From a bacterium (GTDB taxonomy: Bacteria; UBP6; UBA1177; JAGLDR01): a stretch of DNA of 64,000 nucleotides. Each line of letters opens with the position of its first letter. Within the stretch, counting starts at the first letter, position 1. Positions 10,971 through 64,000 of this stretch are shown piece after piece. A program made the translations under genes and the position numbers. The stretch is from NCBI GenBank assembly GCA_023145475.1, contig JAGLDR010000076.1, forward strand, positions 5,488 through 69,487. The letters are read 5' to 3'. The notes under the pieces were generated by a model. That model ran no database searches. It saw nothing but the letters and a program-made list of their open reading frames with translations, and was not told the DNA's origin.

Positions 10971-11174
10971 AGCCAATACCCCGTGTAAAGAGAAACAAAA
11001 GGACAGATCCGAGTGACAACTCGGTAAGAACTGGCAAACTTCTAACATATTTTAGAGAAAAAGCAAGGATTTTATAGAAAAACTCTACCAAAGAGAGAGT
11101 CACGCCACTACATTTCTTTTTGAGGTGTCTTGAGCTGATACATCCGTTCAACGAAGGAAACGACGAATGTGATA

Positions 11175-12737: not shown

Positions 12738-12768
12738 TTGTACCTCAATAAATATAGGTTAAAGATTA

Positions 12769-17299: not shown

Positions 17300-17319
17300 C
17301 TTTACTGTAGGAGTTGACG

Positions 17320-18339: not shown

Positions 18340-21300
18340 GTGATGAAAAATGTTCTAAGGTCTTTAAAATTAAAAGGAGTAGTTGCTGTAATATTCCTTA
18401 TTTTTGCAACACTTCATGCAACGGAAAGCTCAAACTATTATTCTGTGAGAGCTTACAACGCTTCGCCTGAAGCTGTTCAATTTCTTCAATCAAATATGGA
18501 AAAGATCTATTACGACCGTTATGGAATGCCGACTTATATAGTTAAGCTGGAAAATTTAAGTGTCCTGTCTCAGTATTCTGGGATAGAAGTTAACTTCGGT
18601 GTAACATCTTCTGAATACAACAGCATTGATCTTAATGAAACTGTTCCTTCTAAGTATAGTTGGGATTTTGGTAATACTGTTGACACTTCCCGTTCGGGAT
18701 GGAAAACTAAAGATTCCACTGGAAATGATTGGCCTGAACATGACTGGCCATCATATCCTGCGATGACAGTTGAATTGTTAAACAATGTTAATGATTATGT
18801 TACACAACAGTTGCCCGTAGAAGATATTGAACGGGTAGTTAGATCCAATATCGCCTCTGCACTTTATTTCATAGAATACAATATTGCCGCAGAATCTGTA
18901 TATAACAGCCGATGGGATCGTGAGGATTTCAACCCATCACTTGTAGACATTGATGCTGATAATGATCATTGTGTCGATTATTTTCCCAATGACTGTCTGT
19001 CTGCCAAGAATAAAGATAGTGATAACGATGGTGTAGTTGACGAACTAGATAACTGCCCCAATACTAAAAATCCGGGACAGACGGATTTTGATAAAGACGG
19101 GACAGGTGATTTGTGTGATCCATGTCCGAGACGATTCGGTTCAGCGACGGGTCTAGATAGTGACGGAGATGGAATAGATGATGGCTGTGATAACTGTCCA
19201 CTTCATTACAACAAACTTGAACCGATAAATCCTTTTAGTGAAATTATTTCTGCACCCATAAGTAAGTTTTTCAAAATAACTGATGAAAATAATGAACCCT
19301 TAAATAAAGGGCTGGAGCTTTATTATGAGGGCGGGGCTTTTTATTCAGGTGGTTATATTTATTATGCTTTTAGTGATATTAAAGAAGAGGATCTTGGTTA
19401 TTTTTTTACAGAAGAAGAGATTGAGTTCTACAATTCGAATCCCAATATTTTTGGTGATAAGTTCCTTTTATCCACTCCAATTTATCCTTTCAATGGAGTT
19501 CCTGTCACTTATTCTACAGAAATTGACCTGTTTAATGGAAGATCAGCTCTCTTCTTTTCGTTTAATTATCTCTGGCAACCTGACCATGATCTTGATGGCA
19601 TAGGTGATGTCTGTGATATGCCGGGCGAAGTTGTGAGAGAGAGGATTCCAACAATAGATGATGCTGGAAAACTCGTTCTTGATTCCGATGATAAAGCTCT
19701 GTTTGTTCCTCAAATAGGAGATGGATTTGCATACAATAAGATAAAAACAGTCAAAAACCTCACAACTCGAAAGGCATATTTGCCATGGATTGGGGGATAC
19801 GACGATACGGCGGTTAAAATAGAACTTCAAATGCCGCTTTACAGCAAGGATCCTCAAAGTTGCGTGACAAGATTCTCCTATCAAATTAATGATAATCTGA
19901 CACTTGATGACAATGTATGTCAGTCGGCAGTACATTTTTGTGCAGTGGATAAACGACTAAAACATCTCTGGGGAGAAGACGGTTACTGTTCGACATCAGA
20001 TAAAACAGAGCGATACAACGACAATTCAAATCTTGCAAAACCGCTTTTTCCGTTTGGCTTTAGCCACGGAAGTGATGATTTTTCAGAATCCTCAGTTTAT
20101 AGCTGGAGAATGCGAATATCATCCGCGAAAACAGGCAATTCTCTGAAAAATATGGGTTTTGAAACTGAATACTTATCAAATCCAAACAGTGATGTATACA
20201 GATCCATCCAACAGACTTCTACAACAGGAGAGAGTGTTTATTGGAATTGGAGACGAGATTGGTGGTATTGGAATGAATGTTACAGACCTGATAAAACAGA
20301 CGATCCCAGATGTCTGGCACTAAAAACTCCTCCAGAGCTGAGGGATAGTGAAAATACCATGTATTATGCGATTTCAACAAATATTGTTCCTGTGACAAAA
20401 GCTCAAGCATCTGCAGGAGATGTTCCCTCCTATAACAACGAAGCTACATCAATCAATAACAACTACTTTTTCAACAGCAAGGAAGACCGATTTTCCGGTT
20501 CTGATTTTTGGAAAAAAGATGCGTCAAAATACGGAAGAGCACACCGCTACAGTATGAATAAGATGGAGCTTAATTATCACGGAAAAGTATACTCAACACC
20601 CGACCCTGAAATAGATCCACCGATTGACCTTTCCAAGTTCCAAATGGAACTCTGCATTGATTGTTGGTGGAGAATACCTCTTACAATATTGGATGATGAG
20701 ATGATGAAATATCAACTTGGACGCTGGTCTCTTGAAAAAAGAATTGATAATGTATTGCACTTTTTTGCTGAACCTCTTTCCATTCCTGAAAACGCCATGC
20801 TTTTTATGAGCGCACCTGATAGTGGAGAACTCTTTTCTGTTGTCCAACATTCGGGACAAAATGAAGCTACAAGCTATACTTTAGAGATGAGTCCAAAAGA
20901 TGGTGGGATTGATTGGCAGATTATGGGAGCACTTGCATCATTTCCTGAATCTCTTAAAATCACTGCTGTTACTCCTCATCGCGGGCGTATTTATATCCTT
21001 GGACACACTCCTGATGCCTCAGAAGAAACTCTTTTTGCCATTACTCCTGAAACAATTCCCCCTGAAGGCATCACTCTTCCCAACTCTCAAGACAGACCTC
21101 AATTTGTTGTTAGCAATGTGAGTGTAACAGGAATAAGTGAGGACTCATTCGACGAAATACAAATAATATCTTCAGGAGAGAAGTTGTTCTTGGTTGGCTC
21201 TGATGCAACAGGAGGTGAAACAAAAACTTTTAAATTAAACACCGAAACGACACTGTTTGAAGAGGTAGCAGGTCAATCTCCTGCCTATCGTAAAATATAT

Positions 21301-22692
21301 AATCTCAAGAAAAGTTCTGGATATATTTTTCTTATTGGAGGGATGAATACTAACAACGATGCACTAAACGACATGTGGCGATTCAACACTGAAACAGAAA
21401 TATGGGAGCAACTGCTTCTTACACTTCAGGGGGATTTCAGAAAGGTAATTATTCAAGAGGTTGAAGGGAAATTGATTGCCGCAAACCCCATTATGGATGG
21501 CAACACAACACATCCTGCATTTACATTTGACCCAACGATTCAGAATATCAACAATATTGTTATTGAGTATGTTGAAATTCCTGTCACAGAAACAAAGTAT
21601 ATGTCGGATGAAAACTACTGTTTCTTGCAGAGAGATAGCTCTCTTTTTGGTGGTTTACTGTTTGGAAACAGCTGTATTCCATTCACTACAAGAAATCACG
21701 CATTTTATCAGATGAATGGTCTGGTCAACGATGTTGCAGGATATAACAACTATCTCTATACCTCACTTGACAACGCTGTAACCGTTCTTGATATTTCAAA
21801 CCCATCAAACATAGCAGAAGTATTGTCAATTCCGACTGATTTTGTGGTGCATGATATTGATATCAAAAACGATACCGCTTTTGTTACCGTAAATAACGGT
21901 ATTGCTTCGTATGATATTTCCGATGTGAACAACATTGTTTTGCAAGACTTCCTTATCACCTATAATACCGCAAACTTTGTCTATAGTTCAACCGGTCCAG
22001 TCACCGACAGCTACGGGAACCCCGTTCTTTCATCTGGAGAGCTTGGAGACACTACCGAATTAGTAATTGAAGGTAATTTGCTCTACGCAGCAGATGGACA
22101 CGGCATCACCGTGGTTAATATCTCAGATCCATCAAACTTGACGGTTGTCAACAATGTTTATACATCGGGAAACACCGAAACACTCGCCCTCACTGATGAT
22201 AAAATCTATGCGTATGATCGCTACAGTCTCAAGATTTATGATAAAGCAACACTCAATCAAGTCTACGCAGACTATCTTGATGAAGATGACTTTGGCTTTA
22301 CCGAAGATGAGCCGTGTGAAAACGCTCACTTCACTTCATACAACGGTGTTGTATACGCAGACTGTTTCCTCTCTTCATCAGTCTACACTATCGAACAAAA
22401 CTCTTATCTGTACGAGTTCCATCCGATGAGTGGTGACAGCGTTGAACTTGGTGACACATACATATCCGGTCAGTATGGCTATTTTGCCGATGGAACAGGA
22501 GTCAGAGTCAGTTATTTTGATCCGACGGCGCCTGTTTGTGGTGATGGCGTTGTTGAAGGCGATGAAGTGTGCGACAATAACATCGTTGCCTGTACAACAC
22601 TCAGCGGTGACTACATCGGCGGTGATGCCCCTTGTAATTCGACCTGCAACGGATACAATGAAAGTGGCTGTGAAGATGATGATGGATGGTAG
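18340..22692 (+). CDS. giant secreted mosaic protein: TSP type-3 Ca-binding repeats + LVIVD beta-propeller repeats + C-terminal Myxococcus-type Cys-rich repeat
   Basis: 1450 aa with a signal peptide. TSP3 repeats at about nt 19000-19200 ([38 protein letters not shown]). LVIVD-like repeats at about nt 21730-22250 ([31 protein letters not shown]). The C-terminal [15 protein letters not shown]...C resembles the myxobacterial cysteine-rich repeat. Confidence 0.7.
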   Translation: [1450 protein letters not shown]

Positions 22693-40572: not shown

Positions 40573-40600
40573 TTGAATTTCCTGAGAATAGATATAAAAT
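40573..40600 (+). promoter_or_regulatory. candidate sigma70 promoter (TTGAAT-16-TAAAAT) for the C25 peptidase gene
   Basis: -35 at 40573-40578 and -10 at 40595-40600. The AAGAGGGAG RBS and ATG at 40636 follow. Confidence 0.3.
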
Positions 40601-40635
40601 GGAATGAAAATATTCTCAACAAGAGGGAGTTCTCT

Positions 40636-42381
40636 ATGTCTACACGATTTCTAACACTTTTGATGGCGCTTTTTTTGGCAAGTGGATGTGGAGAAACAGC
40701 CCACTCAAATGAGCAAGATGATTCTGACACTTTTTTATCTGATGCTGCTGTCGATGACAACGCTTTTGATGACTCTCAGGACGCTGCTCTCTCTGATGAA
40801 GATGCCGCAATTGACGACAGAGATTCAGCCACCGAGCAAGATAACGAAACAAGTGATGAGGATACACCTCCTCTAACATCTTTAGAGCCAGAAGAAATTT
40901 CTGAATACAATGCTCTTATTATTACAACAGAGTTGTTAAAACCATCGTTCACAAAACTTGCAGCACTCCACACAATGGTCGGCATTCCAACGAAGGTCGT
41001 TACCATTTCAGAGATATGCGGTTCATCGTGTGATGACACCGACACAAAAAATGACACTGCAAAAAAGGTTAAAGAGTATCTCATAGCAACACCTGCGCTT
41101 CGCTTTGTTGTTCTTGGTGGTGATATTGATGATGTGCCATCACGCAGAGTGCATGATACCTACAGCAACACTTTTGCGGGCTCATTTACCTCTGATTTTT
41201 ATACTGACTACTACTTTAGCGATTTTTCTGAGTGGGATACAAACGGTGATGGCGTTTACGCAGAAGATGGCTCCGACTCTCCAGATTTCAAGCCAAAAGT
41301 TGGCGTTTCAAGAATCCCTGTCTCAACAGTTGATGAGGCAGACTCCTATATTCAAAAAGTGGAATCTTATATCACACACTATGATCCAGATGCAATGAAT
41401 CGTGTCGGCTTGACAGCAAACATTGCAACAAACTACAACGGCATTGTCATCAATGCAGGATACTATTTTGAATCCCCAGATCGCACTGTTTCACTGATTC
41501 CTCCACACTTCACCAAAGAAAAGCTATACGCTGCAACTGTTCCGCAGGCTGCTGCTGATGCGGAAAAAATCTCTATTGATTCACAAATAGCAATGTTTAC
41601 AAATGGAACAAACATTATTATTCACAATGGGCATGGCTCGCCTGCACTGCTTACCTGTGAGCAAACGGGGGATGACCTCGATTTCACCGGAGATATGGCG
41701 GCAGAACTTACTAACACAGTATTCCCCATCTTTCTTTCATGCGCCTGTCAAGCAGGGCAATTTGAGGCACCATTCACCTATCACTATACCAGTGGAGGTG
41801 TTGAAAAAGAGCGAGTTTATACAGAGGATTCACCAGGAGAACGCCTTGTTACAGCACCTGCCGGCGGTGGTATTGCCTATCTCGGAAATACGACAACGGG
41901 GCTTGGTCTTGCTGGTGGAAGCCAACTTATTGATGAGATGCTTCGCTATATATTTACTGTTCCAAATCCTATCTTAGGTGACGCACTCATTGCTGGACAC
42001 CAATATCTTAAAGAGAATGATACCTTTCAACCACCTTTAATTGCGCTTCCAATCCCTGTTGTTGACCCTGATAGCTACAGGTGGACACAAAAATCTGTTG
42101 TTCTCCTTGGAGATTTGCTCATTCCTGTCTATACAACGCCTCTGTTGCAGCAGTTAGATTCATTTGTTTTTGATGCAAAAGCCAGCGATGGAGGAATAGC
42201 AATCACACTTCCTCAAACTGAGTGCACAATTTCGATTTTTGATACACAGAAGTATTACACTGTTGACAAGTGCTCCGAAACAAGCTGTTCATACCATATT
42301 ACAACGCCTTCAAAAAAACTTTTTTCTGTCAGAAAGTGTGAAGGATATCAACCAAAAACCTTTAGTATTACAGTGGATTAA
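40636..42381 (+). CDS. peptidase C25 (gingipain-like) family cysteine peptidase lipoprotein with acidic linker
   Basis: MSTRFLTLLMALFLASGCGE lipobox, then a D/S-rich linker. YNALIITTELLKPSFTKLAALHTMVGIPTKVVTISEI...FVVLGGDIDDVPS matches the C25 N-terminal domain. The catalytic dyad candidates are HNGHGSP (His) and FLSCACQAGQF (Cys). Confidence 0.65.
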   Translation: MSTRFLTLLMALFLASGCGETAHSNEQDDSDTFLSDAAVDDNAFDDSQDAALSDEDAAIDDRDSATEQDNETSDEDTPPLTSLEPEEISEYNALIITTELLKPSFTKLAALHTMVGIPTKVVTISEICGSSCDDTDTKNDTAKKVKEYLIATPALRFVVLGGDIDDVPSRRVHDTYSNTFAGSFTSDFYTDYYFSDFSEWDTNGDGVYAEDGSDSPDFKPKVGVSRIPVSTVDEADSYIQKVESYITHYDPDAMNRVGLTANIATNYNGIVINAGYYFESPDRTVSLIPPHFTKEKLYAATVPQAAADAEKISIDSQIAMFTNGTNIIIHNGHGSPALLTCEQTGDDLDFTGDMAAELTNTVFPIFLSCACQAGQFEAPFTYHYTSGGVEKERVYTEDSPGERLVTAPAGGGIAYLGNTTTGLGLAGGSQLIDEMLRYIFTVPNPILGDALIAGHQYLKENDTFQPPLIALPIPVVDPDSYRWTQKSVVLLGDLLIPVYTTPLLQQLDSFVFDAKASDGGIAITLPQTECTISIFDTQKYYTVDKCSETSCSYHITTPSKKLFSVRKCEGYQPKTFSITVD

Positions 42382-52198: not shown

Positions 52199-52624
52199 AT
52201 GCCTGTATTTCCAGGTTTTAATTCAAACATTCGCCACAGAGGCAAAGTATATCACCTTCAAACAGAAGTAAATACTGTTAAAGGTCATCACAATATTTCG
52301 ACGCTTGTCTATCTCGGCGGAGAGATTTATCACTCAACAAAGACAGAGTTAACAGAGGAGCAGTCAGTCAATGAAGAGGCCGCTGCACCTTATATTAGAT
52401 CTCAACATCAAGAGATAGCGCGTCTTCTGCTCTCTGGTGAACTGGTAACAAAAACAGTCACGAAAGAAGATCTTGAAGATATTATTATCGACGATGCTCC
52501 GCCTCCTTTAGATTTTATGGACCTCTATAAAAATGAAGTCTATCTTAATAACAAACCGTTGCAAATGGACTCATTGGCAATGGCAATTCGCTCGCTTGTA
52601 AAGCAGACTGTAGAAAACGCTTAA
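52199..52624 (+). CDS. hypothetical protein (141 aa) tightly coupled to rpoZ
   Basis: Starts 3 nt after the rpoZ stop. No recognisable motif and no signal peptide. Confidence 0.4.
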   Translation: MPVFPGFNSNIRHRGKVYHLQTEVNTVKGHHNISTLVYLGGEIYHSTKTELTEEQSVNEEAAAPYIRSQHQEIARLLLSGELVTKTVTKEDLEDIIIDDAPPPLDFMDLYKNEVYLNNKPLQMDSLAMAIRSLVKQTVENA

Positions 52625-54948: not shown

Positions 54949-57441
54949 ATGAAGAAATTAACTGCTCTTTTGTTCCTGCTTCTGTTTATACAGTTAAGCG
55001 CCAGCACCTCACTCTTTTCACACACCAATATTGTGAAAGAAAGTGAAAATGTCCGCTCTATTACCCACCTACACATTACTGTTGCAAACAGTGGCGCTGT
55101 AACTCAATTTATAGAGCGACACTTTTTGAAAACCTTCTTTGATTCACCCTTTATCAAAGCAAATCTCACCAAAGATATCGTAATTGGCGACACAAATATC
55201 ATTCGCTATGACTATAAATACAAGGGAATCCCCATCAATGGCATCTGGACAACAGTTACCGTGCAGAAGGGCCATATTGTCCGCATTGACAATGGACTTG
55301 AAAATATGCAATTTGATGTTTCGCATATTATCTCATCATCGCAAGCGGTTCAAACGGCAATGAAACAGCGACATCTGACAACGCTCCCAACACGGCATAT
55401 ATCATCGTTAATGATTATGAAAGTCGCTGGCGAGTGGACTCCTGTCTATCGAGTCTCATTCACACCTATCGCTCCATTTGATCGACGATTCCATATCATT
55501 CACGCACAAAGTGGACGACATCTCTATCGTGGAAATCTCATCTTTTTTGCTGATGAGGATACCACTACCATAGATGACGAGGTAACTGATTCGGATATAA
55601 CTGAGGTGCCTGATGAGATTGATGCACCAACAGATATGGCATTGATGTACCAATTTAATCCTGAACGGACGGCTGATAGAATTTCCGTTGCATTACCATG
55701 GGTCTCTCTGATTGATGATGCTGCGCTCGACTCGAGTGAACAAGGATTTTTAACCGCCGTCATAGATGATAATGATATTAGAAAAATAAAGGCCTACAAC
55801 TGTCCAGATAATGGTGAAAAGGTGGATATCGGCCCATTAGTGGGCATTTCAATGGCCGTAATGTTACCCATTTGCTCTCCAAAACAGTTGGCTAACAAGG
55901 TTGATAACAACTCATTTGTTTACAACGATTGTCATGATGGCATGACCTACAACCGAGAGAAGATGAATGAAAAAGATATTGATAGATGCGCAGAAGTTTC
56001 AATGTACTATCATACAGCAAAAGTCTATGATTTCTTGCGAAACATAAGCAGTGAATTTGAATATCTCAACAACAATACTGAAGATAAGCCACTGAATTTG
56101 ATTGCTAACTTCCAAATGCCAGAGATGGATCAAGCAAAAATAATGAATGGGACTGCACAATTAACTCCAATGGATAACGCTTTTTATTCTCCTGAGGATC
56201 CAACGCTTAGCGCACTTCTTTCAACTTCAGGTATTTCTGGCAATCTTCTTGTTTTCGGGCAAGGCACAAAGGCTGATTTTGGTTTAGATGGAGATGTGGT
56301 ATATCACGAATTTGGACACGCAATTATCCATACAACAGGGCTAGACTCAAACGGATTTGTTGATAAATATGGATTTAATAACGAGCCTGGCTCACTTCAT
56401 GAAGGTCTTGCAGATTCATTTTCTATGATGCTTACCAATGACCCCTGTACTGGCGAATACGCATCAAAAGGTATTGTAGATATGGTTGTTTCGGGTGGCG
56501 GAACAATTGAGATGGATCGGGATGGTGATTTTTATTGTATGCGTCACGCAAAAAACAGTTACACCGTATTTGAAGACCTTAACGGTGAAGTTCACTGGGA
56601 CGGACAACCAATGTTAGCCGTAAATTGGACAATATTTCAGTGGATAAAAGATAAAAAAATTGGGGGCGAAAATCTCGCCGAGCACCAAAAAACATTCGCA
56701 GAACTACTGTTGAAAGTGCTCTATTCACTCGGAACAGCAGAGGGAACCTACAAACAGTGGGGCACAACACTGCAAACAGTTATTGAAGATGACACACTCT
56801 ATAAAGATATTGCAAAAGATGTGGTAACTTTGATAACGGAGAGAGGATTTTTTACTGATATTCGTTCACGAAAACTTACGGCAGAAAAGCCAATCAAAGC
56901 TTTTTATGTTGCTCAAGGAGCATCATCAGGAGGCATTGGCGATGTAACGGGTGGCTCGGGTGGACTCACAATCGAAGAAGATGAAAAAGAGATTGAAATT
57001 GGAACATCATATCTGCAACTCCTTGTTACTCTGCCTGAAGGAAGCAACAGTATAAAACTTTCCGGAGTCGCTGCGGCTGGCGGTGGTGGACTCGTTGGTG
57101 GTGGAAGTGATCCCGTGTTAAAACTCTATTACCGAGCAGAGAAACCAGTTGAGTACCATCTGACAAAAGATAAAGCAGCAACTGTTGATAAAGATGGGAT
57201 TTCATCTGATGGAAAAGGTGTGTGGAATATAGAAAACATCGCACCCGGCACCTACTATCTGCAATTTATCAATAGTGCTGGTGCAGGAGTTGTTCAGAAT
57301 CTTTCTGTCGCATTTTATACCGCTGAGATAGAAACTCCAGATGAAGATAGTGATACTGCAACAAGTATGGAAGATGATCCTATTCCCGATGAGACAAATC
57401 ATACCGCACCAAGCAGTGGTTGCAGCTCTCTAATAATCTAA
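54949..57441 (+). CDS. secreted gluzincin zinc metalloprotease (HExxH + downstream E..D; M4/M36-like)
   Basis: Signal peptide MKKLTALLFLLLFIQLSAS; VVYHEFGHAIIH (HExxH) followed ~35 aa later by NEPGSLHEGLADSFS (Glu zinc ligand, gluzincin pattern); a Gly-rich segment; ends ...SSGCSSLII. Confidence 0.65.
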   Translation: MKKLTALLFLLLFIQLSASTSLFSHTNIVKESENVRSITHLHITVANSGAVTQFIERHFLKTFFDSPFIKANLTKDIVIGDTNIIRYDYKYKGIPINGIWTTVTVQKGHIVRIDNGLENMQFDVSHIISSSQAVQTAMKQRHLTTLPTRHISSLMIMKVAGEWTPVYRVSFTPIAPFDRRFHIIHAQSGRHLYRGNLIFFADEDTTTIDDEVTDSDITEVPDEIDAPTDMALMYQFNPERTADRISVALPWVSLIDDAALDSSEQGFLTAVIDDNDIRKIKAYNCPDNGEKVDIGPLVGISMAVMLPICSPKQLANKVDNNSFVYNDCHDGMTYNREKMNEKDIDRCAEVSMYYHTAKVYDFLRNISSEFEYLNNNTEDKPLNLIANFQMPEMDQAKIMNGTAQLTPMDNAFYSPEDPTLSALLSTSGISGNLLVFGQGTKADFGLDGDVVYHEFGHAIIHTTGLDSNGFVDKYGFNNEPGSLHEGLADSFSMMLTNDPCTGEYASKGIVDMVVSGGGTIEMDRDGDFYCMRHAKNSYTVFEDLNGEVHWDGQPMLAVNWTIFQWIKDKKIGGENLAEHQKTFAELLLKVLYSLGTAEGTYKQWGTTLQTVIEDDTLYKDIAKDVVTLITERGFFTDIRSRKLTAEKPIKAFYVAQGASSGGIGDVTGGSGGLTIEEDEKEIEIGTSYLQLLVTLPEGSNSIKLSGVAAAGGGGLVGGGSDPVLKLYYRAEKPVEYHLTKDKAATVDKDGISSDGKGVWNIENIAPGTYYLQFINSAGAGVVQNLSVAFYTAEIETPDEDSDTATSMEDDPIPDETNHTAPSSGCSSLII

Positions 57442-57535
57442 AATAACACAGGTTTCCCCTATAAAAACAAAACTACTATTTTTTATCGACACTTGTCTAC
57501 AGACTTGAATATTTCTTTTTGCTACCGTCTTGTCA

Positions 57536-57777
57536 TGGATATTCGAGATGCTGTAGGAAGGCGCGTGCTCCATTACCGCCACCTGCGTGATATGACACAG
57601 AATAAGCTTGGCGAGGTCGCTGGAATAGACCGGGGATATGTGTCTGATATTGAGAATGGAAAACGAAAGATAACTATTGATATTATTGATAAAATAGCTC
57701 GCGCATTAAACATCCCAGCAAGTGCACTTCTAGAAGCAGAATTGCATGAGAACCCACCAGAATACAACAGCTTATAA
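57536..57777 (+). CDS. XRE-family helix-turn-helix transcriptional regulator
   Basis: TQNKLGEVAGIDRGYVSDIENGKRKITIDIIDKIARALNI is a textbook HTH_3 (Cro/C1) motif. The start could be 57493 or 57536. Confidence 0.7.
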
Positions 57778-57940
57778 CAACACAAGAATAAACAACACAC
57801 ATAGTTCAGAAAATAAGAGTAGAGAACTATTTCATTAAATGTCATTTTTTTGTCGTTTTTTAAAAATTTCCTTCACAACATAACTTTTATCGCTATTATT
57901 GTTGTGTGGAATGTTTTGTAAATAAAAAAGGAGCGAGAAG

Positions 57941-58654
57941 ATGGACGAAGAAAAAAGAATTCTAATCTGCAATGACTCTCCTAAAGAGAGCCGTATTTTG
58001 AAGGGAATCCTGAAACAATCAGGATTTACGGTTGATTGCATTTCTGAGGCGAGCAGTATTATTGCAACATTAATGTGGAAGCGACACCACGCGTGCATCA
58101 TCAGTTTTTCAAATCTTTCACACTTTAATGCTCTTCATGTCGCCTCTTCAATTTATGAAAAAAACCTTCCTTCTGAGGTTGGCATTATTTTAACAGGTGG
58201 AAGAGAGGACAACGCTTTGCTCTGCAATGCACTTGAAGAGTACGCTGATGCTGTTGTTTCTATACCCTATGACCTCCCTCTTCTTTCAGGTGTTGTAACA
58301 TCGGTAATCAGAAGAGAACGCAGTAGAAATGTAGATTTTTATTCAACCACTTCAGAACAAATTTATGTTGGAAGCTCTATCATCGATACAGGAAAACGCT
58401 CGCTCTCCTATGGAAATGAGAAATTTACATTTACAAAATCTCAATTCCAAGTTTTCATGCTTTTGATTATGAATAAGACAAAAACGCTTACTCGCGAGAA
58501 TATTCTTAAAAATATAAAAGGGGAGAAAATCTTTTTAGATTCACGCACGGTAGACAACACCATATACCAACTGAGAAAAAAACTTAAAGAGACCTGTTTT
58601 CATATTGATACCGTCAGTGGTCTTGGATATTCACTCTCTCTTGTTGATTGCTAA
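57941..58654 (+). CDS. OmpR/PhoB-type winged-helix regulator with degenerate (pseudo-)receiver domain
   Basis: The C-terminal region FTFTKSQFQVFMLLIMNKTKTLTRENIL...RTVDNTIYQLRKKL...GLGYSL is the trans_reg_C winged helix. The N-terminal ~115 aa has a receiver-like beta-alpha pattern. The phospho-acceptor Asp position reads IISFSN and the conserved Lys is absent. Confidence 0.6.
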   Translation: MDEEKRILICNDSPKESRILKGILKQSGFTVDCISEASSIIATLMWKRHHACIISFSNLSHFNALHVASSIYEKNLPSEVGIILTGGREDNALLCNALEEYADAVVSIPYDLPLLSGVVTSVIRRERSRNVDFYSTTSEQIYVGSSIIDTGKRSLSYGNEKFTFTKSQFQVFMLLIMNKTKTLTRENILKNIKGEKIFLDSRTVDNTIYQLRKKLKETCFHIDTVSGLGYSLSLVDC

Positions 58655-58659
58655 AGACC

Positions 58660-60168
58660 TTATCGTCCTGTTCCCGGTGTTTGAGTCGCTGCGTACCAGG
58701 TGAAGTTGTCAAGTAGGACCATAGAGTCAAGAACATGATCACCACTGTCCCAGGTAACTAATCTCAATTCAAATTCTTCGCCACCAACAACATTTCCTCT
58801 TGTAACAAGCCATCCGGTTGCGCCGTGTCCTTCAAATCCTGTTCCTTGCAATTCTGCACCACCAAGACAGGCTGCGGTGATATCAGGCTTGAGCCAAGAT
58901 TTTTCACAAACGGTAAAAAGACCGTTTTTTGCAAGATTCACGCCAACAGGATTCTTCATTGCATCCATTGCGAGGTTTTTATCTGCTGGGTTTTGGAGGA
59001 GTGGATCTGCACTCGTAAAAGATGAATCAATAAGGGAGAGAAAGAAATCATTGTATGTAGAACAGACATAATCAGGAAACTCAATGGAGAGAAAATAGAT
59101 TTGGAAACTAAATGATTCCGCATTTAGAGGCGCTCGTATTTTCAGTTTTAACATAACAGAATCATTCGCTGGATCATTACTTTCTGTACCAAATCCACAT
59201 GATGGAGATGTTGGATATTTGTTTCCATTTGCGCTGTACCAATCAGCAGGTGAAGCGGAGGCTGTATCATTTCCAAGTTCAGCCTCGGTGTCTTTAAATG
59301 GATTAACGGTAACACCACTTGAAATGGCTGCCATACTGGCACCATTATGAGGCCTGATAAGTGTGCCAAGTCCGGTGAATGTTGAGTATGAAACAGGTGC
59401 GAGTGATTTGCCGTCATTATCGATTGCGGTGCCGTTTGCAAAAAGTAGTTCAGCACTCACGATGCCAAACCCATTTTCGCCTGCGGGACACAAATCCATT
59501 GATTGTCCAAGATTCATTGCGGCATCTAGATGCGGTGTTCCATTGTCACATGTTGCTGCGACTTCATCTATTTCACCGTTACAGTTATCATCAACATTGT
59601 TTCCCTCAATTTCAAATGAGCGAGGATTAACCAGTTCCGGATGGATACATTGACTTCCAAGCTCACAGCAGTCTCCCTCACAATAGGTAAAACCATCACC
59701 ATCAAAATCAATGGCATTTCCAGGGGTTTGATCAATTCCATCGCAATCTTGATCCTCTCCATCAGAACAGATTTCAGCTTGTGGGAGAACTTCATTTTTA
59801 CAGGCTCCCCATCCACTGCCATCATCAATGCAGGTCATTGTTCCTGCTTGACACGCCCCGACACCCTGTGTGTTACTTGGACCGGAGTAGCACTCTAATG
59901 TATTACCAGGAGTACACTCCATACCAATCGTTGCGTCTTTATCCGGAGCTGAATCACCAGCAGATTGATCTGACACAGTATTGCCACTATCATCGCTACT
60001 ATCGCTCGTGTCACCGTTATCATCTGCTTGAGAGCCACTATCACCATTGTCGCTTGTTATATAATAATCACTGTCTCCGACATTGTCTGCTTCAAGGGAC
60101 TCTTCTCCACACGAAAACAGCAAAAACAGCATACTAATTAAGATAACTATAAGAAAGAACCTTCTCAT
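58660..60168 (-). CDS. Cys-rich acidic lipoprotein (502 aa), hypothetical
   Basis: MRRFFLIVILISMLFLLFSCGEE lipobox, then a D/S/G-rich linker, then a Cys-rich region (CDGIDQTPGNAIDFDGDGFTYCEGDCC) and a large globular domain. Confidence 0.5.
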   Translation of the reverse strand: MRRFFLIVILISMLFLLFSCGEESLEADNVGDSDYYITSDNGDSGSQADDNGDTSDSSDDSGNTVSDQSAGDSAPDKDATIGMECTPGNTLECYSGPSNTQGVGACQAGTMTCIDDGSGWGACKNEVLPQAEICSDGEDQDCDGIDQTPGNAIDFDGDGFTYCEGDCCELGSQCIHPELVNPRSFEIEGNNVDDNCNGEIDEVAATCDNGTPHLDAAMNLGQSMDLCPAGENGFGIVSAELLFANGTAIDNDGKSLAPVSYSTFTGLGTLIRPHNGASMAAISSGVTVNPFKDTEAELGNDTASASPADWYSANGNKYPTSPSCGFGTESNDPANDSVMLKLKIRAPLNAESFSFQIYFLSIEFPDYVCSTYNDFFLSLIDSSFTSADPLLQNPADKNLAMDAMKNPVGVNLAKNGLFTVCEKSWLKPDITAACLGGAELQGTGFEGHGATGWLVTRGNVVGGEEFELRLVTWDSGDHVLDSMVLLDNFTWYAATQTPGTGR

Positions 60169-60232
60169 ATCTCTCCTCCTTGATAAAGATTATGATAGCA
60201 TAGAGTAACAACTCAATTGTGTCAAAGAAAAT

Positions 60233-62329
60233 TTAACTTCCGCCAGTCCCAACTTTTTTACCAGGAACGATAATCAACACTTCGCGCGTACTGAGAACAG
60301 TACCTTGACCACGAACATTTATCTGAGCTCTAAAAAGTGTTGCCTCTGTCGTTTCAGGCTCATAGATGTTGTTTTGGAATGTAACATCAAAAAGAACCGT
60401 TGTGCCAGGTGTAACACCGTAAAATGTTGTAGTGTCTTTTGAGGTGTAGGCCTCAATAGGCTCAGTCGAATTTGGAATAACCGCATTGATAAATTGAGTG
60501 GTATCAACTCCGTGAAGATTGTCAATTGACTCTGTAACAGTATTTACATCCATCAAAATATTGTGAACTAAATCACTAACTGCATCAACAACCTGTGTAG
60601 AAAGTCCCGTTCCATTTGCGGCGATAGTATAATAGTAATAGGAGCCATCAGCTCTTTTGGAGTCTGTTCCTTCAGAGACAGCATTGTAATCGGCTGTTGG
60701 ATCAGTCTGGTCTGAGATTGACTTGATTCCGATGAATTTAGCATTAATAGCATTCATTGCTGCAATCGCCTGTGCTCTTGTATGACCGGGAGTTGACCCT
60801 GATGCCCATCGAACACCACTTTCGCCTTGAAAGCCGTATCCAGCAAATGCCTCATCAGTAATCATAATATATATTGGGAGTGAGTCTTGTCTAAAACATG
60901 CTCCACCAATTGTGTCTCCTGAACAAGTAGCTGCCGGAATAGAAGGACTTACCAATGTTTTCCAATCACAACTTCCCCACTCATCACAATCTTCGTACTC
61001 AATTCTTGAGTTAAATCCTTCACCTGTTGCTGATTGATAGAGTGCCTCTTCGTGAGGTTCATATCGGCCACCCTTCAAAGAGAGTGCATTAACTGCAGCG
61101 GTTACAACGGCAGCATCTGTTGTTATTGGCGTCAAAGCATAAGGAGCGTCTTGCCATGTTCCAAATCCAACAAGGCCAAAGGCTGCACTTGGAATTTCAC
61201 TGTTAATTCCTGAAATAATAGTGTTGTTTATACCACTTTTAAGATTTCCAAGCTCTCCATCCATTGTGCCAGAAAGATCGACAAGAATAAGAATATCTGC
61301 AAATTGAATATCGGTGGTAAAATCAAGCGGCTTATCGGTCTCTGGCTCTTCGTATGGCAAGACAACATAAAAAACATCTGCCGGAATACCAAGAGCTGGA
61401 TCAAGCACATATTCAGCACCAGTATGATCTGGATCGATCTGCTCACCGTATGCATTCTCAACATTATCATCAAAACCATCACCATCAGTATCAGACTCTT
61501 TTGCATTACTGCCAATCGATGCTTCGTAAGAGTCCGTCAAACCATCATTATCAGAGTCAAAATCGAGAAAATCAGGAATTTTATCATCATCACTGTCAAT
61601 AGGAGGCTCTGATCCACCACTCTCCTCACTATCAAGCATTGTATCGCCATCAGAATCGGTATCTAAAAAATTCGGCAGACCATCTTTATCAGTATCTTTC
61701 AATCCTTCATATAAATCAGAGATTCCATCGCCATCAGAGTCACTATCCATATAATCAGCAACGCCATCGCCATCAGAATCAACAGGTGATTCAGGATCAC
61801 TCCCCGCCTCTATACCATCAGAGATGTTGTCATTATCTGAATCGGTATCTCGGTAGTTGACTGCACCATCGCCATCGGTATCTTCAACACCTTCAACAGA
61901 ATCGGGAATACCATCACCGTCACTATCACTGTCTTGATAGTCAGGAGTTCCATCTTCATCAGTGTCAACAGGGACACCATTGGGTGCTTCAACACCATTT
62001 TTTATCCCATCGCCATCTTCATCAGCTTCGGGATCAATCTCAGAAACGGTATCACTCGTATCAGCAGAATCAGCAGAATCAGCAGAATCGGCACTATTGC
62101 CGCTATCGGATGTATCAGCTGTGTCCGAGCTATCTGCGGTATCGGTTGTGTCTCCGATATCCAGAGTATCGCCTGAATCACCACTATCTGAACTGTCAGC
62201 ACTATCGCCTGTATTTGCAGTGTCAGCGGTGTTGCCACTATCAGCGGTATTACCAACTGCCTTTCCCTCTTCGCCACACGAAACAAAAAGAAGCATCGTG
62301 GCCACAATAGTAAATAAAATAGTTCTCAT
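60233..62329 (-). CDS. lipoprotein with acidic low-complexity linker + TSP type-3 Ca-binding repeats + von Willebrand factor A domain
   Basis: MRTILFTIVATMLLFVSCGEEG lipobox; an (ADS/ADT)n linker; repeated DxDxDGxxDxxD motifs (DTDEDGTPDYQDSDSDGDGIPD...); a vWA domain with MIDAS ILVDLSGTMD; ends VPGKKVGTGGS. Confidence 0.65.
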   Translation of the reverse strand: MRTILFTIVATMLLFVSCGEEGKAVGNTADSGNTADTANTGDSADSSDSGDSGDTLDIGDTTDTADSSDTADTSDSGNSADSADSADSADTSDTVSEIDPEADEDGDGIKNGVEAPNGVPVDTDEDGTPDYQDSDSDGDGIPDSVEGVEDTDGDGAVNYRDTDSDNDNISDGIEAGSDPESPVDSDGDGVADYMDSDSDGDGISDLYEGLKDTDKDGLPNFLDTDSDGDTMLDSEESGGSEPPIDSDDDKIPDFLDFDSDNDGLTDSYEASIGSNAKESDTDGDGFDDNVENAYGEQIDPDHTGAEYVLDPALGIPADVFYVVLPYEEPETDKPLDFTTDIQFADILILVDLSGTMDGELGNLKSGINNTIISGINSEIPSAAFGLVGFGTWQDAPYALTPITTDAAVVTAAVNALSLKGGRYEPHEEALYQSATGEGFNSRIEYEDCDEWGSCDWKTLVSPSIPAATCSGDTIGGACFRQDSLPIYIMITDEAFAGYGFQGESGVRWASGSTPGHTRAQAIAAMNAINAKFIGIKSISDQTDPTADYNAVSEGTDSKRADGSYYYYTIAANGTGLSTQVVDAVSDLVHNILMDVNTVTESIDNLHGVDTTQFINAVIPNSTEPIEAYTSKDTTTFYGVTPGTTVLFDVTFQNNIYEPETTEATLFRAQINVRGQGTVLSTREVLIIVPGKKVGTGGS
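62061..62096. repeat. (TCAGCAGAA)x3 + degenerate 4th unit within a ~230-bp simple-sequence tract (62037-62270)
   Basis: tcagcagaa tcagcagaa tcagcagaa tcggcacta. On the minus strand it encodes the (ADS)n acidic linker of the vWA lipoprotein. Confidence 0.7.
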
Positions 62330-62476
62330 AAGTATCCTCCCTTAACAAACACTCTCTACAGTTTAGTTACCGGAAGGTCTGTTTTTTCCGATTTCTACAC
62401 TATTAATATGTAATTATAAGGAATATTTGGAAAAACATCAACCATTATAAAGAAAAAAGAGGGGATTGTGTAGCAA

Positions 62477-64000
62477 TCAGCTTCCGCCGCCGCCTACATC
62501 TTTTCCAGGAACGAGAATATAAACATCGCGGGTATCAAGAACGGTTCCCGCACCAACAACATCAATTTTTGCTTGAAAAAGCTGAGATTCAGTTGTGGTA
62601 TTTTCATAGAAATCATTTTTGAAGGTTACATCAAATATGAGTGTAAGTCCTGGTTTCACATGTTCGAATGTGTTCCCAACAACAATTGTTGGCGCTACAG
62701 CACTACTTGCATCAGGAATAATTGACTCAAGGAATGTTGTTGTATCAGCGACACCAAAGAGGTTGTCTATATGTTTTGTTGCGGTAGCAAGTACATCAAT
62801 TTGCAAATCACCAGCAAGGTCAACAACAGCATCAACAATAGCAGAGGACATACCGGAACCATCACCAGGAATTTGGAAGTTAAATGGATTTCCAACTGAA
62901 TCTAATGATTTTGTCTGTGTTGAAACCGTTGCATAGTTATCCATTGCAACACCAGCACTATCAACACCGATAAACTTTGCGTTAATTGCATTCATAGCGG
63001 CAATTGCTTCAGTCAAAGTTTTTCCACCAGAAGGAATAGTACCAAAACCACCATCTTCATCAGTTATCATAATAAAAATAGGTAACGACCCTGCTCTCCA
63101 TCCTGCAGGCTGAGCGGGAATTGTATAGTCACTTGTACCACCACAACCACCGCCACCACCAGAGAGTGTGCCACCAGCACCAGTTGATGCTTGATAGAGC
63201 GCTTCTGCATGATATTCATCAGATCCACCAGCACCTAAACTGTTAAAGGCTGCTGTCAGTGCAGTATTATCTTTTGTAATTTGTTGATCAACAATATAGG
63301 CATCACTTTCTAGACCAAAAGTAGCAAGACCCATCGCAACATCATCCACTTTTGCGTTAATTCCTGGAAGAATAGTGTTGATAATTCCCGCCTTAAGATT
63401 TGCCAATTCATCACTCATTGAACCAGACATATCCATTATAAAGAAGACATCAACTTGGCTAATAGCAAGCTTAAACTCAAGTGATTTAACAACTGTATCG
63501 GTGAGGTGGTAAGGAAGTACAACATAAAATGTATCTTCAGGGATTCCACTTCCTGCATCAGTTGGATCACTACCAAAAGCTATTTCTGTATTATCGTCAA
63601 TACCGTCGCCGTCAGTATCTGCCAATTTTGGATTTGTACCTAAAGTTGCCTCTTTTGCATCGCTCAGACCATCGTTATCTGAATCTGCATCAAGGAAATC
63701 GGGAACCTTATCGTCATCGCTATCAAGTGGTGGCTCAGCATCACCATTTTCATCGTGATCTGAAATCGTATCACCATCGGCATCAGTATCAATATACGCT
63801 TCAAATCCATCTTTATCGGGATCGGTAATGCCATCATACAAATCTCTAATACCATCATTATCAGAATCGTCATCTAGATAGTTTGGTGTACCATCGTCGT
63901 CAAAGTCAGCTGGCTCTGCTGGAGTTTCGCCAGCTTCAGTTTCATCAGGAATGTTGTCATTATCTGAATCGGTATCACGATAATTCGGTGTTCCATCACC
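62477..64000 (-). CDS. vWA + TSP3-repeat protein, tandem paralog (5' end beyond window)
   Basis: vWA MIDAS FIMDMSGSMSDEL; TSP3 repeats continue in-frame to the window edge (revcomp of 63842-64000 reads GDGTPNYRDTDSDNDNIPDE... with no stop); ends VPGKDVGGGGS like its neighbour. The annotated start at 63841 is a TTG inside the repeat region and is not the true start. Confidence 0.6.
   Translation of the reverse strand, partial: GDGTPNYRDTDSDNDNIPDETEAGETPAEPADFDDDGTPNYLDDDSDNDGIRDLYDGITDPDKDGFEAYIDTDADGDTISDHDENGDAEPPLDSDDDKVPDFLDADSDNDGLSDAKEATLGTNPKLADTDGDGIDDNTEIAFGSDPTDAGSGIPEDTFYVVLPYHLTDTVVKSLEFKLAISQVDVFFIMDMSGSMSDELANLKAGIINTILPGINAKVDDVAMGLATFGLESDAYIVDQQITKDNTALTAAFNSLGAGGSDEYHAEALYQASTGAGGTLSGGGGGCGGTSDYTIPAQPAGWRAGSLPIFIMITDEDGGFGTIPSGGKTLTEAIAAMNAINAKFIGVDSAGVAMDNYATVSTQTKSLDSVGNPFNFQIPGDGSGMSSAIVDAVVDLAGDLQIDVLATATKHIDNLFGVADTTTFLESIIPDASSAVAPTIVVGNTFEHVKPGLTLIFDVTFKNDFYENTTTESQLFQAKIDVVGAGTVLDTRDVYILVPGKDVGGGGS

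Follow-up and report, generated by a model that had tools for sequence, protein, structure and literature searches.

Among described bacterial lipoproteins, CglD (MXAN_0962) of Myxococcus xanthus combines a Ca-binding COMP/TSP3 (thrombospondin-type-3) module with a β-integrin-like von Willebrand A (vWA) domain bearing a MIDAS. It is an outer-membrane gliding adhesin of 1,130 aa with 46 Cys and EGF-like Cys-rich repeats (bioRxiv 10.1101/2023.10.19.562135). The first-pass annotation of the locus analyzed here regarded vWA + TSP3 lipoproteins as not being a characterised bacterial system, which is not supported, since CglD has the same architecture and is characterised (bioRxiv 10.1101/2023.10.19.562135). 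OmpR-type regulators with an aspartate-less receiver (ALR), or pseudo-receiver, are a known class as well, including RitR, HP1043 and ChxR (PMC4395418, PMC12632262).

The window, a stretch of 64,000 nucleotides from an uncultured bacterium, was extended along its contig as locus L001, which was identical to the window across the 7-kb overlap. Four lipoprotein genes were found clustered on one strand, encoding three paralogs (639, 667 and 698 aa) and then a 502-aa choice-of-anchor-L lipoprotein (Table 1). The minus-strand lipoproteins annotated earlier as 502, 698 and more than 500 aa were all recovered at their places, and the extension completed the third gene (667 aa, L001:7850-9853) and revealed the additional 639-aa paralog beyond it. 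The 698-aa protein and the truncated third-gene product were 49% identical in a pairwise alignment (E 4e-134), which supports the tandem paralogy proposed before, but the number of vWA paralogs is three instead of two, with the 639-aa copy outside the window. The three are 49-52% identical pairwise. An XRE gene and an OmpR-type gene are located on the plus strand and, as annotated, are convergent with the lipoprotein genes. On balance, we consider that the region holds two independent things, a lipoprotein cluster and a regulator pair, with nothing that ties them.

Table 1 Features of the locus (positions in the window)
Feature	Position	Strand	Basis or remark
Secreted HEFGH (zinc-metalloprotease-like) protein	54949..57441	+	Its gene is found ahead of the XRE and regulator genes in each of the three genomes with the pair
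Putative operator-like palindrome TCGACACTTGTCTA	57486..57499	+	In front of the XRE gene; overlaps a -35-like hexamer
XRE/Cro-C1-type HTH regulator	57536..57777	+	80 aa from ATG at 57536; mechanical ORF 57493-57777 starts at TTG 57493
Pho-box-like direct repeat TGTCATTTTTT/TGTCGTTTTTT	57840..57861	+	Upstream of the OmpR-type gene; TRF: period 11 bp, 2 copies
OmpR/PhoB-family regulator, 237 aa	57941..58654	+	Aspartate-less pseudo-receiver; Trans_reg_C 58.5 bits
502-aa lipoprotein, last gene of the cluster	58660..60168	-	Acidic linker, Cys-rich MopE-type motif, choice-of-anchor L domain
698-aa paralog, ORF	60233-62329	-	
698-aa paralog, 390-aa C-terminal head	60236..61405	-	MIDAS-bearing vWA (βI-like) domain with β-sandwich strands on either side; resembles integrin β headpiece
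698-aa paralog, TSP3/COMP-type Ca-binding repeat region	61406..62029	-	11 DxDxDG motifs
698-aa paralog, acidic D/S/T/G/A/N low-complexity linker	62030..62275	-	Translation, TRF, exact pattern match
9-bp tandem array inside this linker	62060-62093	-	TRF
698-aa paralog, signal peptide and lipobox (FVSC)	62276..62329	-	Cys18 invariant in 28/28 aligned relatives, hydrophobic stretch before each
667-aa paralog, 3' 1.5 kb	62477..64000	-	Translation; head at 62480-63562, TSP3 repeats upstream; gene runs past the window

In each paralog, a lipobox Cys is followed by an acidic low-complexity linker, then by 10-12 DxDxDG TSP3 motifs and finally by a C-terminal module of 390 aa. The earlier statement that every lipoprotein starts with lipobox-CGEE needs correction for the third gene (667 aa), whose mature N-terminus is CDGDE; Asp is found at +2 in one paralog. 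Lipoproteins of this genome commonly show the same order of lipobox, C-G and acidic linker; it is no signature of the cluster. The linkers had been described as encoded by simple-sequence DNA. An exact pattern match placed (TCAGCAGAA)x3 at precisely 62061-62087, in agreement with this description, but little of the linker DNA proved to be true tandem repeat. When the 698-aa paralog was aligned with its ortholog from the related locus L005, six of the eight gap columns fell within the signal peptide and linker part. The paralogs contain about 21% acidic residues and 2-6 Cys, and as many as 12 putative Ca sites were counted in a single chain. TSP3_bac was present in 44 of the 48 relatives that were scored for it and for the MIDAS, and the repeats would bind Ca2+.

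By sequence, the head displayed no significant relative in the PDB (best E 0.025), and its Pfam matches to the Integrin_beta, vWA_SIBA-E and VWA families were all below the gathering score. The vWA assignment of the window proteins was therefore based on the structure model (pLDDT 92). The top 50 Foldseek matches of this model were all integrin β headpieces (E 5e-15 to 3e-12), with alignments spanning essentially all 390 residues, whereas isolated vWA domains aligned across only about 170-186. Judged from the model, the relation to integrin β is at the level of the fold only, and the order of secondary-structure elements together with the alignment lengths suggests that the sandwich at the C-terminus also takes in the N-terminal strands. 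The motifs DLSGTMD and DMSGSMSDE were present in the window paralogs, and the MIDAS residues were near-invariant in the relatives (D 48/48, S 47/48, S 46/48, T 47/48, D 47/48), as were the Met after the motif and the Glu at +8 (each 47/48). TSP3 repeats plus a vWA domain with intact MIDAS, as proposed earlier, were thus supported.

The head identity was 78-91% between orthologs of this locus and L005 and 40-44% between paralogs, indicating that the paralogs are old and each maintained separately. Most of their divergence fell within loops of the head (residues 132-171, 192-211, 232-251 and 312-331 of the model), therefore they probably bind different ligands. The 390-aa module belongs to a large unnamed family with 463 cluster representatives at E<=1e-30, in which it is always C-terminal. 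Members often occur in tandem arrays, with two to five copies in several MAGs, and no conserved partner gene was found for the family. The 502-aa lipoprotein is, by its sequence, unrelated to the paralogs and found only in close relatives. It matched NF038133 (47.3 bits, cutoff 27) and PF11617 (32.6 bits), contains 19 Cys and was not significantly similar to any paralog in a BLASTP comparison with low-complexity regions filtered; its gene was present only in L001 and L005 among the 35 loci.

The two plus-strand genes were identified as those of a small, repressor-like XRE protein and an OmpR/PhoB winged-helix regulator, in accordance with the annotation (HTH_3 at 53 bits for the XRE ORF). Orthologs of the XRE gene were called at 59-61 aa, and translation probably begins at ATG 57536, given that conservation across three species sets in there. 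In the 237-aa regulator, Response_reg scored 24.6 bits, under the gathering score of 30.2. Alignments to PhoB and to the structures of DrrD and PrrA placed Ser55 at the position of the phospho-Asp and Ile108 at that of the Lys; Asn11 and Asp12 form the acidic pair, and Thr85 is retained. No Asp reappeared at the acceptor site on realignment, and Ser occupied it in 4/4 close relatives, the only four among 5.8 billion proteins. The annotated loss of both residues was therefore upheld, as was the lack of a cognate kinase nearby, with no histidine kinase gene called within about 10 kb on each side. Kinase-independent action of the regulator is presumed, whether constitutive or driven by another input. 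The HEFGH metalloprotease-like protein displayed no significant Pfam match; by tblastn, L005 contained the entire gene, and in the more distant locus L007 its C-terminus lay directly upstream of the pair.

Both regulator genes are preceded by motifs of their own. The palindrome, part of a promoter-like site at 57486-57513, was conserved across three species in front of the XRE gene, being identical in L005 (TCGACACTTGTCTA, 5667-5680) and replaced in L007 by the perfect palindrome GTAGACTATAGTCTAC (core at 350-363). The direct repeat upstream of the OmpR-type gene was the only match in the window with <=1 mismatch. It is kept in L005 as TGTCATTTTTTTGTCAT but is degenerate in L007, and an invariant CTTCACAA comes after it. 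The regulator may bind this Pho-box-like repeat. Because each regulator gene has its own conserved promoter motif, these footprints in three genomes, two of them close relatives, suggest autoregulation of each.

The most likely function of the paralogs is Ca2+- or divalent-cation-dependent surface adhesion, and the Ca-dependent adhesin proposed by the first-pass annotation is the most reasonable reading of the TSP3, vWA and MIDAS architecture. The lipid would anchor each paralog in the outer membrane, exposed at the surface, and the lipid-anchored Cys would be followed by a flexible acidic linker and a stalk of 10-12 COMP-type Ca2+-binding repeats. Ca2+ may stiffen this stalk and so keep the head away from the cell surface, and an acidic side chain of the ligand would complete the metal coordination of the MIDAS. 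vWA domains also have non-adhesive roles. The paralogs could instead be Ca2+-buffering or matrix-organising components of the envelope, or hetero-oligomers formed via their MIDAS heads, without binding an external ligand. Their acidic composition and Ca sites, the co-maintenance of three paralogs with arrays of up to five copies elsewhere, and the action of COMP and thrombospondins as matrix organisers are consistent with such a role. However, bulk Ca binding accounts less well than ligand recognition for a near-invariant MIDAS and for divergence focused on loops, and the paralogs contain no domain for oligomerisation comparable to the coiled coil of COMP, which makes this explanation unlikely. 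That the three are CglD orthologs and take part as accessory adhesins in gliding by a Glt/CglB-type focal-adhesion machine appears very unlikely. The domain logic is shared, and the NusA of this organism is nearest to those of Myxococcota and Deltaproteobacteria among named taxa (about 50% identity). The NCBIfam CglD model also matched, but weakly, at 23.8 bits against an equivalog cutoff of 400, and only in the N-terminal part (signal peptide, linker and TSP3); seven longer family members failed too (best 35.6 bits). The paralogs (639-698 aa) are about 60% of the length of CglD and lack its EGF-like Cys-rich repeats (2-6 Cys vs 46), no motility-related Pfam match was obtained among the window ORFs scanned, and cglD of Myxococcus is a single gene without a tandem array. 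Membership of an ordinary BatA/BatB-type or T1SS (RTX) adhesin family was tested and rejected as most improbable: the matches were restricted to the generic vWA fold (166-173 residues), while the paralogs have an SPII lipobox instead of transmembrane anchors or a C-terminal T1SS signal and TSP3 instead of RTX repeats, and no MoxR, DUF58, Bat or T1SS genes were called in the 22-kb locus.

Apart from adhesion, the Gly-rich C-terminal tail had been proposed as a sorting or processing tag. The tails of the two window paralogs are near-identical (VPGKKVGTGGS and VPGKDVGGGGS), as the annotated VPGK(K/D)VG(T/G)GGS describes, and those of the L005 orthologs are similar (VGSGGS and VGTGES). However, the 639-aa paralog ends in VPGKDSSSGNE, and only VPG was conserved across the 28 relatives aligned for the lipobox Cys and tail, in which the 5-10 residues beyond varied freely. 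Too short for a sorting signal, the tail has neither a hydrophobic helix nor a basic cluster and leaves no space for a transmembrane helix, and no MYXO-CTERM, PEP-CTERM, GlyGly-CTERM or T9SS model matched the paralogs; it can hardly be such a tag. A functional unit of regulators and lipoproteins, with the XRE and aspartate-less OmpR pair dedicated to the adjacent cluster, was also considered. The two groups are neighbours, with 5 bp between the stop codons of the OmpR-type and 502-aa genes, and the entire arrangement is kept in L005. Since L005 is a close relative (69% identity for the regulator, and the head identities given above), the shared order may reflect simple descent. In L007, the pair remains beside the metalloprotease-like gene while unrelated genes replace the lipoproteins, and no copy of these regulators was found in the roughly 30 other loci in which the vWA family occurs. 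The two groups are moreover convergent, and the conserved motifs of the regulators were absent upstream of every lipoprotein gene in the window and L001. Dedicated control is therefore rather doubtful, and independence of the pair and the cluster is preferred.

Compared with known systems, the regulator resembles the ALR proteins RitR, HP1043 and ChxR in having a REC-like domain without phospho-Asp (Ser) and Lys but with the Thr retained, fused to a winged-helix output domain and without a partner kinase. It differs in belonging to a very small clade and in always being paired with a small XRE gene. Unlike BatA/BatB, the paralogs have no TPR operon partners either, and a C-terminal sandwich accompanies their repeats and lipobox. 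With the type-3 "wire" of thrombospondin/COMP they share arrays of DxDxDGxxDxxD Ca-binding motifs, and the family profile (A2) of the TSP3 region matched COMP (3fby, E 2e-5) and thrombospondins; the coiled coil, EGF domain and C-terminal L-lectin domain are lacking, and it is a vWA head to which the repeats are joined.

In ITGB3, DLSYSMKDD forms the MIDAS plus ADMIDAS, and the DLSxSM..(D/G)E motif of the paralogs resembles it. A Cys-bearing variable loop of the head sits at the position of the integrin specificity-determining loop, and the vWA domain is predicted to be embedded in a β-sandwich as βI is inserted in the hybrid domain. The paralogs differ from integrin β in their predicted N-terminal lipid anchor, in sequence similarity under Pfam thresholds, and in lacking a PSI domain, I-EGF repeats, β-tail, transmembrane helix and cytoplasmic tail; no α-subunit-like partner was conserved near their genes. 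CglD and the paralogs are both lipoproteins with an N-terminal DxDxDG TSP3/COMP-like module and a C-terminal vWA domain with a DxSxS...T...D MIDAS and β-sandwich, are both best matched by integrin β structures and are both predicted to be Ca-dependent surface adhesins. In addition to the differences in length, Cys content and model score, the window family occurs in tandem arrays and in a deep unclassified lineage, and is not known to be connected with gliding machinery. The paralogs represent the CglD architecture in a shorter, sequence-distinct family.

All of the open reading frames claimed in the first-pass annotation were present: genes for an XRE-type and a 237-aa OmpR/PhoB-type protein, and on the minus strand genes for lipoproteins of 502 and 698 aa and a third one leaving the window end. 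The threefold tandem array of TCAGCAGAA was found precisely where it had been placed. By an exact-protein look-up, the locus was also found on a metagenome scaffold of 54 kb (L001), which was identical to the window across a 7-kb overlap. With this extension the gene cut by the window end encodes 667 aa in full, and the CGEE start attributed to its product had to be corrected, as the mature N-terminus reads CDGDE. A gene for a further paralog of 639 aa, ending in VPGKDSSSGNE, lies upstream of it with a 4-bp overlap. Therefore, the unit comprises four same-strand lipoprotein genes, i.e., paralogs A (639 aa), B (667 aa) and C (698 aa), followed by the 502-aa gene. Pairwise alignment bore out the proposed tandem paralogy of the two window proteins (49% identity, E 4e-134; C-terminal ends VPGKKVGTGGS and VPGKDVGGGGS), and all three paralogs are mutually 49-52% identical with 10-12 DxDxDG motifs apiece.

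Features of the lipoprotein cluster and of the surrounding region (window positions unless a locus is named)
Feature	Positions	Strand	Remarks
XRE-type HTH ORF	57493-57777	+	HTH_3, 53 bits
OmpR/PhoB-type protein, 237 aa	57941-58654	+	Trans_reg_C PF00486, 58.5 bits (cutoff 26.2); Response_reg, 24.6 bits (gathering score 30.2, not reached)
502-aa ORF	58660-60168	-	
698-aa ORF (paralog C)	60233-62329	-	
(TCAGCAGAA)x3 array	62061-62087		exact position
Head of paralog B	62480-63562	-	
Antisense ORF	61962-62345	+	opposite linker/TSP3 repeat DNA
Lipoprotein with acidic D/S/T linker	17314-18240	+	
1,450-aa protein	18340-22692	+	TSP_3, LVIVD and Kelch matches
Peptidase_C25 (gingipain-like) lipoprotein	40573-42381	+	
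HEFGH metalloprotease-like protein	54949-57441		C-terminus about 57400-57441; L005:3117-5612; L007:3-245
Palindrome near-copy	52298-52311		inside a 141-aa gene
Palindrome near-copy	55435-55448		inside the metalloprotease-like gene

The 502-aa protein displayed no significant BLASTP similarity to the paralogs. A MopE-type Cys motif was recognised in it, and its residues 281-487 match the choice-of-anchor L domain model NF038133 at 47.3 bits (cutoff 27); PF26766 was precomputed for this product. A PDB sequence search with this protein gave no match and its single-sequence AlphaFold2 model reached a pLDDT of 35. Among the loci compared, L005, a close relative, was the only one besides L001 to have it. 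Many lipoproteins of this genome show a lipobox, then C-G and an acidic linker, so that this combination does not mark out the cluster. Lipoproteins with such low-complexity acidic linkers appear to be plentiful in the genome; the window encodes a further one, as well as a gingipain-like lipoprotein and a 1,450-aa protein that is another TSP3 bearer. Opposite linker/TSP3 repeat DNA, long antisense ORFs recur in 12 loci; these are not genes but shadows of the repeats. The remainder of the window is ordinary chromosome encoding IF-2, NusA, PurH, enolase, PriA, MutS2 and SurA. For NusA, about 25 relatives with 61-88% identity were found, every one unclassified, and those from Myxococcota, Deltaproteobacteria and Acidobacteriota reached at most 52%. 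A terminator scan of the region returned counts at the level of shuffled sequence, with none at the convergent junction.

In the paralogs, Pfam and NCBIfam recognised TSP3 repeats alone, and vWA matches were weak and below threshold. When the C-terminal 384 aa were used as the query, 219 metagenomic relatives with identities of 37-53% were recovered. Across 28 aligned relatives, the lipobox Cys and the TSP3 Asp positions were invariant, together with a stretch "FYVxLPY...LxFxTxI" and the motif "VDLSGSMxGE", and the TSP3 region joined the head directly with nothing between. With 48 sequences as input, AlphaFold2 modelled the C-terminal 390 aa with high confidence (pLDDT 92, pTM 0.88). In the predicted head, two N-terminal strands are followed by a vWA alpha/beta domain and a C-terminal beta-sandwich. 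When this model was compared with the PDB by Foldseek, the top 50 matches were all integrin beta-subunit headpieces (E 5e-15 to 3e-12), and the alignments covered essentially the entire query. Isolated vWA domains (BatB, Pactolus, collagen VI and others) matched at similar Z over only about 170-186 residues, indicating that the vWA fold by itself is generic. The specific feature of the model appears to be the two-domain arrangement, which would correspond to a betaI domain embedded in a hybrid domain; we infer this insertion topology from the order of secondary-structure elements and the alignment lengths. Searched by sequence against the PDB with the profiles A2 and A4, the head had no significant relative (best E 0.025), and the TSP3 part alone was significant, matching COMP (3fby, E 2e-5).

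The MIDAS residues were almost invariant in 48 relatives (D 48/48, S 47/48, S 46/48, T 47/48, D 47/48), and the Met after the motif and the Glu at +8 were each retained in 47 of the 48. The vWA fold with an intact MIDAS, as claimed from the sequence, agrees with both the confident integrin-beta-like model and these residue counts. At the third MIDAS position, the window 698-aa protein alone among the members carries Thr. The DLSxSM..(D/G)E of the heads presumably resembles the DLSYSMKDD of integrin beta-3 (MIDAS plus ADMIDAS), a likeness that we take as a lead only. From the variable loop in the head of paralog B, the otherwise nearly invariant cysteines C161 and C170 (model numbering) have been lost, with a Gly-rich stretch (GGGGGCGG) in their place.

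Each paralog had its own ortholog in L005, with heads 78-91% identical between orthologs versus 40-44% between paralogs. The first two vWA genes were swapped (L001:5931-9853 versus L005:10513-14360), so that A pairs with B5 (86%) and B with A5 (78%), indicating a rearrangement inside the tandem array. The TSP3 stalk displayed zero gap columns against L005, and in C and the 502-aa protein nearly all gap columns relative to their true L005 orthologs were located in the signal-and-linker part at the N-terminus. Between paralogs, the stalk was the most conserved part (50-87% identity), and divergence was highest in four head loops including the Cys-bearing insert (model residues 132-171), at the place where integrins have the specificity-determining loop. 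This pattern of sequence conservation would fit three maintained, functionally distinct copies.

The Gly-rich tail had been proposed as a sorting or processing tag. Across relatives, its conservation was limited to "...(I/V)(I/V)VPG", which is the end of the last strand, and the 5-10 residues after VPG were unrelated in sequence (KDAEFDPPVQ, SDSRD, DYTGPEN, ESLNK and others). The sorting-domain models MYXO-CTERM, PEP-CTERM, GlyGly-CTERM and T9SS CTD (NCBIfam, E<=0.01) had no match in the tail, which has neither a hydrophobic helix nor a basic cluster, and the tail likeness is restricted to recent orthologs. A role as a sorting tag was therefore rejected.

With a threshold of E<=1e-30, a head-only profile search against 1.84 billion cluster representatives (clusters at 50% identity) detected 463 proteins, and with E<=1e-10 it detected 1,429. 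The head was always located at the extreme C-terminus, and in some members the N-terminal part carried Cys-rich acidic repeats of the myxobacterial kind. The genome matches were MAGs labelled "bacterium", uncultured Spirochaetales, Myxococcales, Kofleriaceae and Ca. Sumerlaeota, several of them from ruminant guts; one Kofleriaceae locus has a gene for a lipoprotein of this design with 676 aa. Family members are also present in MAGs labelled Polyangia and in a deep lineage that is unclassified. Tandem arrays were frequent, with five copies in L023 (MAG RA.bin111, 6142-14569), three in L016, L017 and L019 and two in several other loci, and array size differed widely among genomes. A model for the head family would name hundreds of "hypothetical" proteins and hence bears on annotation.

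The OmpR-type regulator aligned full-length to the PhoB and OmpR models, and its receiver residues were assigned by alignment to the structures of DrrD (1kgs) and PrrA (1ys6) and to PhoB. The loss of the phosphoacceptor suggested by the first-pass annotation was confirmed: Ser55 occupies the phospho-Asp position and Ile108 that of the conserved Lys, while Asn11-Asp12 stand at the acidic pair and Thr85 is retained. Only four close relatives (47-100% identity) were found among 5.8 billion proteins, all of them with Ser at the acceptor site; beyond these, the matches were canonical regulators at <=28% identity. By its sequence, the protein is an aspartate-less receiver, a known class (definitions in PMC12632262). 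The Asp is missing from about 4% of REC domains, with Ser as the third commonest replacement, and among REC-OmpR proteins the aspartate-less fraction is about 2% (PMC4395418). No histidine kinase was called within the 22-kb locus, as had been claimed, and the loss of Asp and Lys together with this absence suggests that the regulator may act independently of Asp phosphorylation.

The regulators and lipoproteins had been described side by side. The entire arrangement is retained in L005. In the more distant genome L007, the metalloprotease-like gene, the XRE gene and the regulator gene are retained in this order, followed by unrelated genes for HAD hydrolase, Exo_endo_phos and H+-PPase proteins, with no lipoprotein genes downstream of the pair. 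Cross-species footprinting identified a palindrome TCGACACTTGTCTA upstream of the XRE gene, where it overlaps a -35-like hexamer; its L007 counterpart is the perfect palindrome GTAGACTATAGTCTAC. A pho box-like direct repeat TGTCATTTTTTTGTCGT with an 11-bp period was located upstream of the OmpR-type regulator gene. Neither element was found upstream of the lipoprotein genes; in a motif search of the window, good matches occurred at the regulators' own promoters only, and further direct-repeat matches were at chance level. Two near-copies of the palindrome lie inside coding regions; these extra copies are kept only in the close relative L005 and are therefore uninformative. Both the persistence of the pair in L007 without lipoproteins and the absence of the motifs from lipoprotein promoters speak against a single system, and adjacency to the cluster is no evidence of control. 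Judged from these footprints and gene orders, the pair is probably autoregulated and, if it belongs with anything, probably belongs with the upstream metalloprotease-like gene. It would represent one more small conserved clade in the known class of kinase-independent OmpR-type regulators, with candidate operator sequences. The HEFGH metalloprotease-like protein, which is secreted, has a Cys-containing C-terminal tail conserved in three species (...SSGCSSLII*, ...SSGCTSIIL* and ...GSGCSGILVP*), preceded by an acidic DDP(I/V)PD stretch. This tail looks CaaX-like or truncated-MYXO-CTERM-like, yet has no transmembrane helix.

Overall, the observations of the first-pass annotation largely stood and its interpretation stood in part. 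We are highly confident in the architectural description of the lipoproteins, and consider an adhesin mechanism for the paralogs somewhat more probable than not. In such a mechanism, the paralogs would be located in the outer membrane or at the surface, the stalk would be loaded with Ca2+, and the MIDAS would bind an acidic residue of a ligand, with the three paralogs possibly binding different ligands. The regulators would act without a kinase and regulate their own expression. If the fold assignment holds, beta-integrin-like heads on thrombospondin-type Ca-binding stalks are not peculiar to CglD of Myxococcus, and the module is widespread and often tandem-amplified while having no Pfam or NCBIfam family model, some of its carrier MAGs being ruminant-gut bacteria. 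It would then bear on the prokaryotic history of integrin-type adhesion domains and on the attachment of uncultured diderm bacteria to surfaces, prey or hosts. A bolder proposal, which we regard as rather unlikely, is that the 390-aa module, which defines a large unnamed prokaryotic family, is truly homologous to the complete integrin beta headpiece (betaI in hybrid, MIDAS and ADMIDAS-like Glu), independent of CglD and diversified by tandem arrays into a Ca-dependent adhesin repertoire. If true, bacterial integrin-beta-like heads would be common instead of exceptional and would offer a compact, tractable model of headpiece origin.

Several known systems were considered for the paralogs. Ordinary BatA/BatB or T1SS-adhesin membership, named in the first-pass annotation as a refutation, did not hold, since anchors, repeats and operon partners disagree. 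BatA/BatB was rejected because no MoxR ATPase, DUF58 or TPR Pfam families were detected among the L001 genes and the proteins have a lipobox instead of transmembrane helices. A T1SS RTX adhesin was rejected because there were no HemolysinCabind/RTX matches, the repeats are of TSP3 type and no T1SS genes are near. As to integrin beta, Pfam Integrin_beta (PF00362) gave 16.9 bits for the 667-aa paralog against a gathering score of 24.8, and E<=0.01 in only 1 of 48 relatives. Integrin beta has PSI and I-EGF domains, a beta-tail, a C-terminal transmembrane helix and a cytoplasmic tail, whereas the window proteins end 6-10 residues past the sandwich and are anchored by the N-terminal lipobox. Integrin beta also forms a heterodimer with a beta-propeller alpha subunit; here, when the ORFs of 33 loci were clustered all-vs-all, no neighbour family recurred besides the head family and antisense shadow ORFs of the repeats. 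A beta-propeller "alpha-subunit-like" partner was accordingly dropped, although Kelch, RCC1 and Beta_propel proteins occur nearby in some loci.

The architecture had been called uncharacterised; however, a characterised precedent exists in Myxococcus xanthus CglD, a cell-surface lipoprotein of 1,130 aa that is required for Ca-dependent gliding traction (bioRxiv 10.1101/2023.10.19.562135). CglD contains a COMP-like DxDxDG Ca-binding module (residues 40-430), EGF-like disulphide-rich repeats and a beta-integrin-like vWA domain with MIDAS (residues 644-1111) (bioRxiv 10.1101/2023.10.19.562135). A lipoprotein signal, a TSP3/COMP Ca-binding module and, in the predicted model, a beta-integrin-like MIDAS vWA are common to CglD and the window paralogs. 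Membership in the CglD equivalog itself was rejected: NF033765 reached 23.8 bits against a curated cutoff of 400, matching only the N-terminal part (model positions 9-301), and longer family members all failed as well (maximum 35.6 bits). The EGF-like repeats that lie between the modules of CglD are absent from the paralogs, which contain 2-6 Cys in 639-698 aa. As regards an association with the Glt/CglB gliding machinery, no motility-related Pfam families were detected among the scanned ORFs of the 64-kb window. We class the paralogs as a compact new form of putative lipoprotein adhesin of the CglD-like or beta-integrin-like kind.
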